Virus record (IMG/VR): IMGVR_UViG_3300043446_003110
DNA: 64,000 nucleotides
DNA from: a virus
Strand: one strand, 5' to 3'
Below are positions 1 to 9,227 of this stretch, piece by piece. The position numbers and the translations under genes are program-made. Every line of letters begins with the position of its first letter. Position 1 is the stretch's first letter. The notes under the pieces are model-generated. The model had not been told where the DNA came from and made no database searches. It saw only the letters and a program-made list of their open reading frames with translations.

Positions 1-198
1 AAAACATATCTCAATGAAGAAAACATTGTGTCAAAAGATTACAACAAAAATAACAAATTAATCAGTATTGGACAAGAAATTCCATTCAATAATAGATGGG
101 CTTGTACATATAAAAATACATTAATAGGATTTTCAAGATATCAAACTTACCAAAAAACATCACCCGGAACAGATAAAGAAACAGGATTTTTTGTATGA
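1..198 (+). CDS. 3' end of a hypothetical protein (partial, runs in from the left edge)
   Basis: Frame +1 is open from base 1 (KTYLNEENIV...ETGFFV) to TGA 196-198, which overlaps the next ATG (ATGA). Confidence 0.7.
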   Translation, partial: KTYLNEENIVSKDYNKNNKLISIGQEIPFNNRWACTYKNTLIGFSRYQTYQKTSPGTDKETGFFV

Positions 199-1865
199 GA
201 AAACCAAGAGTATTATTTTGTAGCGAAGCAACATTTTTAAATACTGGATATGCTACGTATACTAGAGAAATATTAAATTATTTGTATAGTACTGGCAAGT
301 ATGAATTAGCCGAAATGGCATCATACGGCGAACGTAATGACCCAAGAGCATCAAAAATACCTTGGAAATTTTATGGCGTAGTGCCAGATAATTCTTGTTC
401 AGAAGAAGAACGAAACCAATACGCACAAAATCCAATAGCACAGTTTGGCGAATTAATGTTCGAATCCGTATGTTTGGATTTTATGCCAGACATAGTGTGC
501 GATATAAGAGACTTTTGGATGTTAGACTTTGCAGAAAGATCTCCATTCAGGCCATATTTTAAATGGTGTATAATGCCAACGGTTGATGCACGACCTCAAG
601 CTAGACAGTGGATAGCGACATATGAATCAGCAGATGCCTGTTTAACATATTCAGAGTGGGCTGGTGAAGTATTGAACCAACAATCTGGTGGTAAAATAAA
701 ATATATTGGTATTTCTCCACCATCAGCACATCCAGCATATCAGCCAATAAATGACAAAAGCGGTCTTCGTCTGTCCATGGGGATAGACCCAGAAGCAAAA
801 ATAATTGGTACAGTCATGCGTAACCAAAGAAGAAAATTGTATCCAGATCTTTTCCAAGCATTCAGAATTCTATTAGATAGCGTCGAAGATAACTCAAAGT
901 ATTTCTTATATTGCCACACTAGTTATCCAGATTTAGGATGGGATATACCAGAATTATTACAACAATATCAATTGTCTTCAAAAGTATATTTTACATATAT
1001 ATGTGGGCAAACTGGGCGACCATTCCCATCATTATTTAAGGGTGCAATGGCACAATCTCCATTTACTGGACAGTTTGGAGCTTCATTATCCAATGTAAAA
1101 AATGGCGTAGAATATGAAGATCTAGCAAAGATAATAAACTTATTTGATTTGTATGTTCAGTACGCTAATTGTGAAGGATTTGGATTACCACAGGTTGAAG
1201 CTGCCGCTTGCGGGATTCCAATCATGGCTACTGATTATTCAGCGATGGAGAGCGTAGTAAGAAATCTTGGAGGAACTCCACTTACTCCAAAAGCTCTATA
1301 TAAAGAATTAGAAACTGGTTGTTTTAGAGCAGTTCCTGACAATCACCTAGCTGCTGCCAAATTTAAAGAATTTTTAGAACAACCTTCTAGTATTAGAAGT
1401 AAACTTGGTTTTGATACTAGACAAGCATTTCTAAAACATTATCAATGGGACAAGAGCGGAAAAGCTTGGGAACAATTTTTTGATAGTGTAAAGATATCTA
1501 ACAATTTTGAAAATTGGAAAATGTCACCAAGAATTGCAACTCCCTCACCAAAACCAGAAAAAGTTCCAGATAATATCAATCACAAAAATCTAGCAAAATG
1601 GTTAATTTCTGAAGTTCTTCATGAGCCAGAAAGATTAAATTCTTATTTTGAGTCAAGAATGGTAAGAGACTTGACTTATCATAATTCTACATCAGTAACT
1701 GGTGGTATGTATTTTAATGAAAGTTCAGCTATGTTCGACGGAAAAAGTAATAGAAATCCATTTGATTTTAACATAGCGTATGATCAAATGGTATATCTAT
1801 GCAATAGAAGAAATTATTGGGAAAACAAGAGAATGGAAATTCTAAAACTCAGAGGTATGCTATGA
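195..1865 (+). CDS. Glycosyltransferase, GT-B fold (GT4-like), with C-terminal extension
   Basis: N-terminal TGYA, RNQRRKLYP, and C-terminal EGFGLPQVEAAACGIP (E-x7-E motif). No transmembrane helix. Confidence 0.9.
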   Translation: MRKPRVLFCSEATFLNTGYATYTREILNYLYSTGKYELAEMASYGERNDPRASKIPWKFYGVVPDNSCSEEERNQYAQNPIAQFGELMFESVCLDFMPDIVCDIRDFWMLDFAERSPFRPYFKWCIMPTVDARPQARQWIATYESADACLTYSEWAGEVLNQQSGGKIKYIGISPPSAHPAYQPINDKSGLRLSMGIDPEAKIIGTVMRNQRRKLYPDLFQAFRILLDSVEDNSKYFLYCHTSYPDLGWDIPELLQQYQLSSKVYFTYICGQTGRPFPSLFKGAMAQSPFTGQFGASLSNVKNGVEYEDLAKIINLFDLYVQYANCEGFGLPQVEAAACGIPIMATDYSAMESVVRNLGGTPLTPKALYKELETGCFRAVPDNHLAAAKFKEFLEQPSSIRSKLGFDTRQAFLKHYQWDKSGKAWEQFFDSVKISNNFENWKMSPRIATPSPKPEKVPDNINHKNLAKWLISEVLHEPERLNSYFESRMVRDLTYHNSTSVTGGMYFNESSAMFDGKSNRNPFDFNIAYDQMVYLCNRRNYWENKRMEILKLRGML

Positions 1866-2971
1866 AAGTATTGTACATAGGCCACTATAAAGAGGGAACT
1901 GGTTGGTCAAAAGCAGCTATAGACCTAATTCATGCTATTGACTCAGCTGGTATAGACATAGTATGTAGAGATGTAAAATTAACGCCCAGACTCTCTGATA
2001 TACCAGAAAAAATAAAAGAACTAGAGTCTAAAAAAATAGATAATATTGATTTTTGTATTCAACATCTTTTGCCTCATCATCTAGTTGGAACATCAAAATT
2101 CAAAAAAAATATTGCATATTACGTGGGCGAGTCTACTACATTGAAATACAACAATTGGAAATCTAGTCTTGATCTTATGGATGAAATATGGGTTCCTAAT
2201 CATACACAATTAAATAACATGACAAAAGATGGATTCAAATCCATAAGATATGTACCACATGCATTTAATTTAGACAAATATAGTGTAAATGACAAAAAAA
2301 TAAATTTTGGTCAAAAAAATGGAACATTTAAGTTTTATTATATAGCTGATATAAATGATAGAAAAAATATAGAGTCTGTTATAAAATGTTTTCATAGTGA
2401 ATTTCACAAATATGAACCAGTATCTTTAGTACTTAAGATCAAAAAATTCGGAGCAAATCCAGATGATTTACGTAAACAGCTAAAAAATATGTGTAATTCT
2501 ATAAAACAAACGCTAAGAATATATCCTAAAATAGAAGATTACCATGATGAGATTATAATTACTGATGATATGACATCTAATGAAATAGATATGTTGCATC
2601 AAGCATGTGACTGCATGGTAAATGTTACTCACGGCGAAGGTTGGTCTATACCATCATTTGATGCCATGTGTTTTGGTAAAACTCCAATATGTAGTAACGA
2701 AGGTGGTCCCAAAGAGTATATTTCAGATAAAAATGCCGGTACGCTAATAAATGGCATATATAATATCTGCGAACACACGGATGCTGCATTTTCAAATATA
2801 TTCACTGGAAGAGAATCTTGGTTTGTACCAGATGAAGAAGAAACGAAGGATGCGATGAGATTTTACTACGAAAATAGAGATACAATAAATCGTAATAAAG
2901 GTATAGAAATAGCTCAGAAATTTTCATATCAAAGCGTAGGGAATATGATAAAGGAACTATTAAATGATTAA
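1862..2971 (+). CDS. Glycosyltransferase, GT-B fold (GT4-like)
   Basis: MKVLYIG...GTGWS, DEIWVP, RKNI, HGEGWSIPSFDAMCFG. Start moved from 1817 to the ATGA overlap at 1862. Confidence 0.88.
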   Translation: MKVLYIGHYKEGTGWSKAAIDLIHAIDSAGIDIVCRDVKLTPRLSDIPEKIKELESKKIDNIDFCIQHLLPHHLVGTSKFKKNIAYYVGESTTLKYNNWKSSLDLMDEIWVPNHTQLNNMTKDGFKSIRYVPHAFNLDKYSVNDKKINFGQKNGTFKFYYIADINDRKNIESVIKCFHSEFHKYEPVSLVLKIKKFGANPDDLRKQLKNMCNSIKQTLRIYPKIEDYHDEIIITDDMTSNEIDMLHQACDCMVNVTHGEGWSIPSFDAMCFGKTPICSNEGGPKEYISDKNAGTLINGIYNICEHTDAAFSNIFTGRESWFVPDEEETKDAMRFYYENRDTINRNKGIEIAQKFSYQSVGNMIKELLND

Positions 2972-8014: not shown

Positions 8015-8745
8015 GGTTTACTACACCGCCAAATAAAAATTATAGAGATGATATCAAAGTTTTGGAAACTGCAATCAAAAATAATGAAAATATTAGTTTT
8101 TCTAAGTTTTGTGATGGTGAATGGTCAGTAATATGTAACCAGCAAATAAACAATAAAGAATTTTGGTTTGATCCATCTAATTCAATGGATCAATCTAAAA
8201 GAAAAGCTTTAATAGATGCATTTCAGTACAAAAATGAAAGATACTTTGTAGGGATAACATGTACCAATGTATTTGGTTTAGAAACTCATAGACAAATGAA
8301 AACTGTATGTCAACAGAAAGAAGACCATTTGACTTGGGCCGATATATGGGTAAATAGCAATTATAAATATTATTTAAGTAATATAGTTCCTATTTATAAA
8401 AGTAGACAAGTCGTGTTATTCTGCAACAGTAAAGGAATAATAGAAAATCTACCATTTGCTCCATATATGGTTTGCAAAGTAGAAAACAATGCATGGGAAT
8501 ATAATTGGGATATGATAGATACATATAAAAAAGTTTCAAGTATGATAAAAAATGCATTATTTTTGTTTTGTTGCGGTCCATTTGGTAATATATTATGTCA
8601 CCAGTTAACGGAACATAATCCAGAAAATACATATCTAGATATTGGGTCTACTTTAAACCCATTCTTACAATCGGCTGGTTTTGAAAGACAATATCACATA
8701 GGACACAATTATTTTTCTACAATGACAGGAGCATGGGATCAATGA
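8011..8745 (+). CDS. GT-D fold (DUF1792-like) glycosyltransferase
   Basis: SFSKFCDGE (cf. RFGDGE), LFCCGP and YLDIGS. Confidence 0.65.
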   Translation: MRFTTPPNKNYRDDIKVLETAIKNNENISFSKFCDGEWSVICNQQINNKEFWFDPSNSMDQSKRKALIDAFQYKNERYFVGITCTNVFGLETHRQMKTVCQQKEDHLTWADIWVNSNYKYYLSNIVPIYKSRQVVLFCNSKGIIENLPFAPYMVCKVENNAWEYNWDMIDTYKKVSSMIKNALFLFCCGPFGNILCHQLTEHNPENTYLDIGSTLNPFLQSAGFERQYHIGHNYFSTMTGAWDQ

Positions 8746-9227
8746 ATTTAGGAATATACATATCTAGTTTATCCGACAGAGAACAGCTAGGACATATAAG
8801 CGAATTAGTCCAAAACAGTGTCCACAATAAAGACATACGCGATCTGAGTATATTTTATGACGATGTGGACTTTAATCCACATAATACTAGATGTGGAATG
8901 TTTAATGCAGCAGATCTGTGGAGTTTCAATGGAAATTTGATAACAACCTCCTTGGATTCTCTAATAACCTCATTAAAAGTAATTAACAACATTAATATTT
9001 TTTACTATCATGGATGGGAAGAAAATCCAAATATACTTAGATTAATTCTATCTATACAAAATGCCAAAATTATATGTAGATCAGAAAAAGATGAAAAAGA
9101 GATCTACAGATTAACTGGAGTGAAACCAATCGGAATATCTGATAATTTTAAAGACATAATCAACTTAATATTAGGATGCAAAGATGAATACAAATCAAAT
9201 AGTAATGATGTATACCAAACAGCATAA
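8742..9227 (+). CDS. Hypothetical protein (possible single Rossmann-like GT-B half domain)
   Basis: ATGA overlap at 8742; alpha/beta pattern (LITTS, IFYY..W, IICRS). Confidence 0.55.
   Translation: MNLGIYISSLSDREQLGHISELVQNSVHNKDIRDLSIFYDDVDFNPHNTRCGMFNAADLWSFNGNLITTSLDSLITSLKVINNINIFYYHGWEENPNILRLILSIQNAKIICRSEKDEKEIYRLTGVKPIGISDNFKDIINLILGCKDEYKSNSNDVYQTA

Follow-up and report, generated by a model that had tools for sequence, protein, structure and literature searches.

What does a tailed phage build with a long operon of soluble glycosyltransferases? We address this question for the glycosylation island at the start of a 64,000-nucleotide stretch (the window) of the virus record IMGVR_UViG_3300043446_003110. 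The record, called G000 here, is a complete IMG/VR genome of 161,058 bp with direct terminal repeats, and the window corresponds to G000:28514-92513 read on the reverse strand. Our analysis indicates that the island is a true phage operon for building a glycan in the cytoplasm, which combines about eight glycosyltransferases of three fold classes with a nucleotidyltransferase and a sugar methyltransferase. Its product is most likely a glycan on the phage's own particle proteins, and not on DNA or on an exported host polysaccharide. We find no DNA-base enzymes, restriction sites are avoided and export genes are missing, which speaks against DNA as the target and against an exported polysaccharide. 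Comparison of related genomes further suggests, with about an even chance of being right, that the phage directs a two-layer glycosylation of its particle proteins, in which the acceptor of the island core is separate from the Thr/Ser tracts found in virion proteins.

G000 encodes a tape measure protein of 2134 residues and tail-fibre-like genes, and is hence a tailed phage. Its major capsid protein (MCP) is distantly phage-G-like, and the terminase and a ClpP-type prohead protease lie just outside the window. A megablast search for a cultured close relative gave no match, and the terminase TerL is at most 28% identical to those of Bacillus and Microcystis phages. The capsid gene is matched by more than 600 IMG/VR stretches, the best 80 at 82-97% identity. 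G000 belongs to a clade of about 160-kb aquatic phages that are uncultured and very common in metagenomes. Across the genome at least 11 glycosyltransferases can be recognized. The island itself consists of the following genes:

1..198 (3' end; whole gene G000:92316-92981), plus strand: GT32-like glycosyltransferase, 221 residues, Gly_transf_sug with DXD (Pfam PF04488, E 4.9e-11)

195..1865, plus strand: GT4a, 556 residues, assigned by Pfam and PHROG, EX7E motif intact

1862..2971, plus strand: GT4b, 369 residues from a conserved ATG, assigned by Pfam, second acidic residue of EX7E variable

2964..3959, plus strand: GT4c, 331 residues, strongest Glycos_transf_1 match (Pfam E 2.3e-19)

3956..4372, plus strand: p138, core gene, only weak methyltransferase matches of its profile against the PDB (E 0.06-0.3)

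4353..5078, plus strand: p244, four invariant Cys at the N-terminus in the alignment

5068..5841, plus strand: nucleotidyltransferase of the GlmU/LicC/IspD superfamily (Pfam DUF6564; NCBIfam GlmU N-terminal models, E 2e-7)

5822..6625, plus strand: p267, compact GT-B glycosyltransferase, core gene (AlphaFold pLDDT 78.5)

6622..7380, plus strand: GT2 (GT-A) glycosyltransferase, accessory, in the variable slot (Pfam PF00535, E 8e-8)

7373..8014, plus strand: FkbM-family methyltransferase (Pfam PF05050; PHROG methyltransferase)

8011..8745, plus strand: glycosyltransferase of the GT-D (DUF1792) fold, accessory, recognized by AlphaFold, Foldseek and a homologue profile

8733..9227, plus strand: p164, which closes the variable slot, 33-65% identity in all relatives, no family match

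11325..11342, plus strand: strong terminator, a GC-rich hairpin followed by a T run, which closes the plus-strand unit spanning the replication genes through the island

The island starts with the GT32-like gene, one gene 5' of the window and directly after ssb. From the window edge to position 11316 there are 15 successive plus-strand genes, of which every neighbouring pair overlaps by 4-44 bp, and the terminator sits where this unit meets the end of the convergent minus-strand virion operon. None of the island products contains a 19-residue segment that reaches a Kyte-Doolittle value of 1.6. The first-pass annotation of this DNA had proposed a coupled cluster of apparently soluble products, with no flippase, polymerase or membrane glycosyltransferase in the window, and both the overlaps and the hydropathy scan bear this out. 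Its gene set of three GT4, one GT-A, FkbM and GT-D also holds, although it had missed the GT32-like start upstream and the compact GT-B at 5822-6625. Directly 3' of the island (9184-9951, plus strand) follows a 255-residue protein with 44-88% identity in all relatives, which combines an HTH-like N-terminal part with a C-terminal stretch that by eye resembles a Vsr/DUF559-type nuclease motif.

The best conserved island gene is GT4a, with 40-87% identity across the clade. It is found in 11 of the 11 searched contigs with at least 61% completeness, and in a distant subclade at 40% identity. Its C-terminus extends about 125 residues beyond the GT4 fold, and the solved structures nearest to it are GT4 enzymes of the BshA type. 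The three GT4 proteins match generic Glycos_transf_1 models only. The TTG at 1817 that is listed as the start of GT4b is probably incorrect, and in GT4c a Ser replaces the first Glu of EX7E in the alignment. Among the small core proteins, p138 resembles a truncated class-I methyltransferase without clear S-adenosylmethionine motif I and is, judged from this, probably non-catalytic. The protein p244 may combine a Cys4 domain with a GT-A-like C-terminal domain; this is a lead only, taken from predicted structures, for which the ESM Atlas neighbours are GT2 and GT8 enzymes at a TM of about 0.5. When p138, p244 and p323 (a protein of the replication module, see below) were compared with the PDB, both as single sequences and as profiles, nothing significant was found. 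For GT4a and p244, nearly all of the closest protein clusters come from viruses. A GxRMKS-type motif is conserved in the nucleotidyltransferase, whose family profile matches LicC best among solved structures (1JYK, E 7.6e-7). Its substrate could be a sugar-1-phosphate or a phospho-alcohol. With p267, Foldseek returned 170 matches at E <= 0.001; all those listed are GT-B enzymes, including SenB, T4 beta-glucosyltransferase, Gtf3/GtfC and macrolide glycosyltransferases.

The remaining enzymes are less widely shared. Homologues of the GT32-like gene occur only in the closest relatives (L001/L016, G005, G016), and the island GT2 has none in G003, G017 and G019-G022. The FkbM gene is without homologue in the 16 related loci found through GT4a (L001-L016), and the sole homologue among the larger set is in G018, at 40% identity. 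The Pfam GT-D model did not match 8011-8745 when run on the genome, and only fold comparison exposed this enzyme. Its AlphaFold model (pLDDT 87, pTM 0.88) has as sole significant Foldseek matches three DUF1792 structures, 4PHR, 4PFX and 5V4A (E 6e-8 to 4e-6, TM 0.59-0.64). A profile of eight homologues likewise matches only DUF1792 structures in the PDB, aligned at the DGE site, and this DXE-type motif, D35-G36-E37, is invariant. The GT-D-like call made from the sequence at first sight was thus correct. Taken together, the transferases of the island are soluble, specific to phages and of three folds, and the solved structures closest to them are generic family members.

How is this operon organized in other phages? 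From related contigs we assembled 16 islands with 199 genes. A fixed core comprises GT4a, GT4b, GT4c, p138, the nucleotidyltransferase, the compact GT-B and, in most cases, p244. Insertion of accessory genes is limited to a few junctions, and GT32, GT2 and GT-D are gained and lost among relatives. The variable slot between the compact GT-B and p164 measures 0.7-14 kb. In the 174-kb relative G021 it holds 16 extra genes (L168:154-14208 = G021:100154-114208), among them four SDR epimerase/dehydratases, two DegT aminotransferases, an ATP-grasp enzyme and GlmS. As far as gene content can tell, such slot variability is what one expects of an exposed glycan that differs among strains.

G000 carries further sugar genes outside the island. 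The late operon runs from a sigma factor and a 261-residue protein through two GT2 genes, a methyltransferase, Gmd (GDP-mannose 4,6-dehydratase) and three short unannotated open reading frames (ORFs) to ClpP and TerL. Gmd is kept in every relative whose contig covers this operon. Gmd, the two additional GT2 and the methyltransferase in this late head operon would give the island genome-wide support. The best bacterial matches of Gmd (45-51% identity) are scattered across many phyla and are uninformative about the host. The two genes that head the operon (L063:3952-5251, plus strand; G000 about 12.9-14.2 kb) encode a phage sigma-70-family factor and the highly conserved, charged 261-residue protein (B261). 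We considered B261 as a sugar enzyme and rejected it, as it resembles a charged coiled-coil protein.

The slot content resembles an O-antigen locus. In a rival reading, the transferases extend or alter lipid-linked intermediates of lipopolysaccharide, capsule, teichoic acid or S-layer, which host flippases and ligases would export. Such remodelling could block superinfection or stop progeny from binding to debris. It is common for GT4 and GT2 enzymes that lack membrane segments to act on lipid-linked acceptors. Moreover, the island is transcribed with early/middle replication genes, and its core persists in a relative without Ser/Thr-tract proteins. However, no initiating phosphoglycosyltransferase, flippase, polymerase or ligase appears in the 16 islands of up to 29 genes; this result comes from a hydropathy scan, and host genes could substitute. 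In that scan none of the 199 island genes has two or more hydrophobic segments, so that flippases, polymerases, other multi-pass membrane proteins and membrane export genes were not seen, and G000 as a whole has no gene for a large polytopic protein. The families of GT4a and p244 are confined almost entirely to viruses rather than recently acquired from hosts, and Gmd together with the extra GT2 and methyltransferase genes belongs to the head-morphogenesis operon. We consider envelope remodelling unlikely.

The position of the island after ssb and the DNA polymerase genes, with a deoxynucleoside monophosphate (dNMP) kinase gene upstream, raises the question whether the transferases glycosylate genome bases as an escape from restriction, as in T4, RB69 and TET-type systems. 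The compact GT-B model does match T4 beta-glucosyltransferase among others, and elsewhere in G000 (L064:4918-6951, minus strand; about 118.9-121 kb) there is a GT4 gene that is coupled to a nucleoside 2-deoxyribosyltransferase-like and a deaminase-like gene. The Pfam matches of these two genes are below the curated cut-off, and the trio may be a separate nucleotide-related pathway. According to PMC13326640, glycosylated phage pyrimidines are built on 5-hydroxymethylcytosine (5hmC), 5-hydroxymethyluracil (5hmU) and 5-hydroxycytosine (5hoC) from thymidylate-synthase homologues. The study 10.1101/2023.12.21.572611 describes a route by a cytosine methyltransferase and a TET-like dioxygenase, in which 5-methylcytosine is oxidised. 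A six-frame search of complete G000 with PF00303 (ThyA), PF12851 (TET/JBP) and PF00145 (C5-methylase) gave no match at E <= 1, whereby the controls were matched for PF00303 and PF00145, and none of 14 control genomes reached the cut-off for PF12851. Palindromes that contain GC and AT are avoided to an extreme degree: CCCGGG, CTGCAG, GCATGC, GCCGGC, GGTACC, GTCGAC and GTGCAC are each absent where 10-21 are expected, and CCWGG occurs 3 times instead of 75. This avoidance is also found in G020 and G021, with a set of sites that differs among relatives. Since it is expected only if the DNA can be cleaved, this avoidance shows that the DNA of G000 is exposed to type II restriction. G000 shares with phage DNA glycosylation systems (T4 alpha- and beta-glucosyltransferase on 5hmC; arabinosyl-5hoC in RB69 and DLP3, as given in PMC13326640; TET-type systems) the presence of GT-A and GT-B enzymes near replication genes, and it differs from them in that we found no base-hydroxylating or -hydroxymethylating enzyme and that sites are strongly avoided. 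At least eight transferases plus amino-sugar pathways also go beyond the DNA glycans of one to three sugars that PMC13326640 describes. DNA modification, named as an alternative by the first-pass annotation, is therefore extremely improbable.

Candidate acceptors are two proteins of the virion module that carry long (TS)n tracts, as had been noticed before:

51549..53678, minus strand: 709-residue virion-module protein, candidate acceptor, (TS)n tracts at residues 145-195, 201-233 and 239-261

50144..51538, minus strand: 464-residue virion-module protein, candidate acceptor, 47-residue (TS)n tract at residues 354-400

The three tracts of the larger protein (51, 33 and 23 residues) are preceded by a conserved N-terminal domain and followed by a Cys-rich C-terminal part; the N-terminal domain and the tracts are kept in G001, G002 and G005. 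The smaller protein has in addition a shorter Thr-rich linker, and the MCP is without a Ser/Thr-rich tail. The tracts are encoded by 18-bp tandem DNA repeats with 84-95% matches (window positions 50349-50479 and 52897-53252). Their number and length vary even among close relatives, and they probably expand and contract by slippage. Across relatives the tract type is (TS)n, poly-Thr or poly-Ser. Serine-glycine dipeptides had been listed as a second sign of glycosylation. Their excess in virion proteins is real (258 observed versus 167 expected, z 7.8) and directional, as Gly-Ser is not enriched, and the non-virion proteins of G000 show none (z 0.6). However, virion proteins of phage lambda have the same ratio of 1.59 (z 4.1; T4 1.13), so that the excess is a general property of virion proteins and no argument for glycosylation. 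We have rejected it as specific sequon evidence.

Are the tracts the substrate of the island? We scored as a tract any ORF stretch with at least 80% Ser/Thr over 20 residues. In 14 relatives the contig includes MCP as well as the island and therefore spans the complete virion module; 12 of them have tracts. This module holds 20 of the 22 tract-bearing ORFs (counting one in G021 downstream of MCP). The counter-example is G020, which is 85% complete, covers the virion module and the island fully and keeps the full core. It contains no Ser/Thr-rich segment, even at a loose threshold of 67% over 15 residues. Because the core is kept here in the absence of any tract, it does not depend on tracts. 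The link between island and tracts drawn by the first-pass annotation is thus not supported: that annotation had itself named relatives that keep the cluster without TS-rich proteins as the finding that would speak against it.

This result bears directly on the analogy with streptococcal serine-rich-repeat glycosylation, in which a GtfA-like GT4 with an inactive GtfB-like partner would prime the (TS)n tracts and the GT-D enzyme would extend them. The analogy has its attractions. The GT-D fold is confirmed, three GT4 genes are adjacent, two of them with imperfect EX7E motifs, the compact GT-B resembles Gtf3/GtfC among many enzymes, and dipeptide Ser/Thr repeats are present. GT4b and GT4c, with altered acidic positions of EX7E in otherwise well conserved proteins, could be taken for a dead partner of the GtfB kind. 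Yet GT4a gives no match to the GtfA add-on domain (the NCBIfam GtfA model reaches E 0.035 over 40 residues), and among solved structures it is closest to the BshA type. GT-D is accessory and missing from many tract-bearing relatives, the GT4 trio is kept in the tract-free G020, and the tracts are tracked not by a GT4 but by another transferase outside the island. We therefore regard a pathway of this type as highly improbable. Of the analogy the GT-D fold stands; a GtfA-type domain, a clear GtfB and co-inheritance with the substrate are not found.

The transferase that does follow the tracts is encoded in the replication module:

G000:99217-100089 (= L062:6918-7790), minus strand: repGT2, GT2 family, 290 residues, part of the same co-directional gene array as the island, at a distance of 6.7 kb upstream from the window

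We compared G020 with 11 tract-bearing genomes, in which 61 genes of G000 are conserved in at least eight. G020 lacks four of these 61, of which repGT2 alone is an enzyme. Its absence is clean, since the PD-(D/E)XK gene and the 323-residue gene p323, between which repGT2 lies in G000, abut in G020. Within the clade, repGT2 remains in the replication module at a distance of 17-65 kb from tract genes. In G021, a relative of repGT2 lies outside this module and only 35 bp from the gene of a poly-Thr protein, and in G031 a relative is 484 bp from a Thr-rich ORF. G033, which is near-identical to G031, has repGT2 and no tract is seen, but its contig ends at repGT2, just where the Thr-rich ORF lies 484 bp further on in G031, and it was counted neither for nor against the link.

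The family extends well beyond the clade. A search of IMG/VR gave at least 545 relatives of repGT2, and the contexts of the best 80 were scored. Of these, 53 are in a replication context, none with an adjacent tract gene. Among the other 27, 14 have a same-strand poly-Thr ORF that ends at most 1.5 kb upstream, and several of these ORFs overlap the start of the repGT2 relative. The contigs with such linked pairs reach about 205 kb and thus belong to other phage lineages. In 325 kb of loci centred on GT4a, by comparison, no poly-Thr ORF was found. Invariant motifs of the family are D94-x-H96, FGGEEG and W.HRFGR, which may recall those of polypeptide GalNAc-transferases (GT27), with their DxH, distal His metal site and Gal/GalNAc-T motif. 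A search of five genomes for the HPAT-type family PF23452 gave no match; it gave none in the controls either and is hence uninformative. The gene p323 (L062:5963-6934, minus strand) follows repGT2 and also adjoins repGT2 relatives in some non-replication contexts (L401, L402, L446); its product may be a partner of repGT2. As repGT2 tracks the tracts, both by its loss in G020 and by poly-Thr neighbours elsewhere, we propose it, and not an island GT4, as the better candidate for the initiator on Thr/Ser tracts; this assignment is drawn from genomic context. The repGT2/poly-Thr pair would be a small enzyme-substrate pair that can be tested by expression without phage culture.

From these data a two-layer model can be drawn. 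In a first layer, the Thr/Ser tracts would most likely be O-glycosylated, initiated by repGT2 with its invariant DxH and gained and lost together with this enzyme. In a second layer, the core, consisting of the three GT4, p138, p244, the nucleotidyltransferase and the compact GT-B, together with Gmd, would act independently of the tracts. Enzymes of the variable slot, here GT2, FkbM and GT-D and in relatives amino- and deoxy-sugar pathways, would diversify the glycan. Gene content, folds, conservation and co-occurrence are shown by the analysis; every chemical step of this scheme and every acceptor are inferred from them. The multi-sugar, O-methylated appendage glycan of the first-pass annotation survives in part: the enzymes are soluble, the glycan is probably methylated and neither DNA nor export fits, while the tie between island and tracts is left unsupported by G020.

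Several points weigh against a glycan on the particle. The phage is uncultured and without cultured relative, and the glycan is deduced from its genes alone. The island is co-directional and coupled with the replication genes for dNMP kinase, PolIII alpha and ssb, and not with the late operon. The same G020 that frees the core from the tracts also means that the core acceptor need not be a virion protein, and soluble GT4 and GT2 enzymes often use membrane lipid-linked acceptors, the export of which host machinery could provide. Island size does not correlate significantly with Ser/Thr-tract content (Spearman 0.40, p 0.17). Tracts occur in seven of seven relatives with GT-D and in five of eight without, a hand-computed hypergeometric value of about 0.12 that is not significant; the presence of GT-D predicts no tracts beyond relatedness. 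As to repGT2, the best match of its profile in the PDB is TarP, over the N-terminal half only, and the search otherwise gives generic GT2 enzymes and no GT27, so that a likeness to GalNAc-transferases is not supported by profile. Glyco_transf_7C is touched weakly by one of nine members (E 0.007). Furthermore, the joint loss of repGT2 and tracts within the clade rests on one near-complete genome and three short contigs of the same subclade.

In a further reading, the core makes another cytoplasmic product. It could be a glycan that is attached outside the tracts to conserved proteins of phage or host, or else a glycoconjugate of soluble or lipid type, and the tracts would be served only by repGT2 and perhaps the late-operon GT2 enzymes. 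The core is universal, tracts and repGT2 are not, and the nucleotidyltransferase is closest to LicC, an activator of a phospho-alcohol rather than of a sugar. Against such a product speaks that the accessory slot varies like exposed glycans and that no candidate acceptor was found. We rate this possibility as quite unlikely on its own; it overlaps with the two-layer model and does not exclude it.

Going one step further, and only tentatively, one may think of a two-tier particle "glycocalyx". A mobile repGT2 cassette would start mucin-type O-glycans and travel with its Thr/Ser tags, and the universal island would build a second, strain-specific glycan. If this holds true, virion glycosylation would extend far outside actinobacteriophages and reach the scale of giant viruses, although to our knowledge it has so far been shown for phages only in mycobacteriophages. 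Glycan shields and glycan-based diversification would then be a general feature of environmental phages and would matter for host recognition and particle stability as well as for grazing and aggregation in water.

A further observation concerns the replication genes next to the island. The DNA polymerase III alpha of G000 is split in two ORFs, the first with PHP and NTPase domains, the second with finger and HhH domains, and a DnaQ-like exonuclease gene lies between them (L062:1045-4904, minus strand; G000 about 93.3-97.2 kb).

How does the island compare with known systems? With the streptococcal serine-rich-repeat system (GtfA/GtfB, Gtf3/GtfC and the DUF1792 enzyme dGT1) it shares a GT-D with DXE, a compact GT-B and Ser/Thr repeats as possible acceptor. 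In contrast, a GtfA add-on, a clear GtfB and accessory Sec genes were not seen, and GT-D is dispensable in relatives. From Wzx/Wzy- or ABC-dependent polysaccharide loci it differs in that their initiating enzyme, flippase, transporter, polymerase and ligase are not seen in the 16 islands. O-linked glycans on capsid and tail-tube subunits of mycobacteriophages were reportedly described in 2023 by Freeman and colleagues in Cell Host Microbe. Similar to what we propose for G000, soluble phage glycosyltransferases and methyltransferases are proposed there to place O-glycans on the phage's own structural proteins. The acceptors are, however, different: C-terminal ends of capsid and tail-tube subunits in mycobacteriophages, internal (TS)n linkers of accessory virion proteins as candidates in G000. 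Virion O-glycosylation of Che8, Corndog and Myrna (Freeman et al., 2023) is cited in PMC12619734. A tblastn comparison with 50,697 cultured-phage records gave no match for GT4a and GT-D and three weak, partial ones for GT4c, none of them in a mycobacteriophage. Compared with the mycobacteriophage set, the island is far larger, with three folds and a hypervariable sugar-pathway slot. The mycobacteriophage system is thus the nearest known kind by function, without detectable homology or shared acceptor type.

In scale and logic, the closest parallel appears to be the autonomous glycosylation of giant viruses. The chlorovirus PBCV-1 carries capsid glycans and a viral GMD, and Mimivirus has gene clusters for the glycans of its fibrils. 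Like these viruses, the clade of G000 combines cytoplasmic transferases, Gmd and methyltransferases with strain-variable clusters and without membrane export genes. The DegT aminotransferases, SDR enzymes and GlmS of its relatives parallel the nucleotide-sugar enzymes of giant viruses. Giant viruses infect eukaryotes, whereas G000, which encodes a tape measure protein and a terminase, is a tailed phage, and the comparison is one of gene content only.

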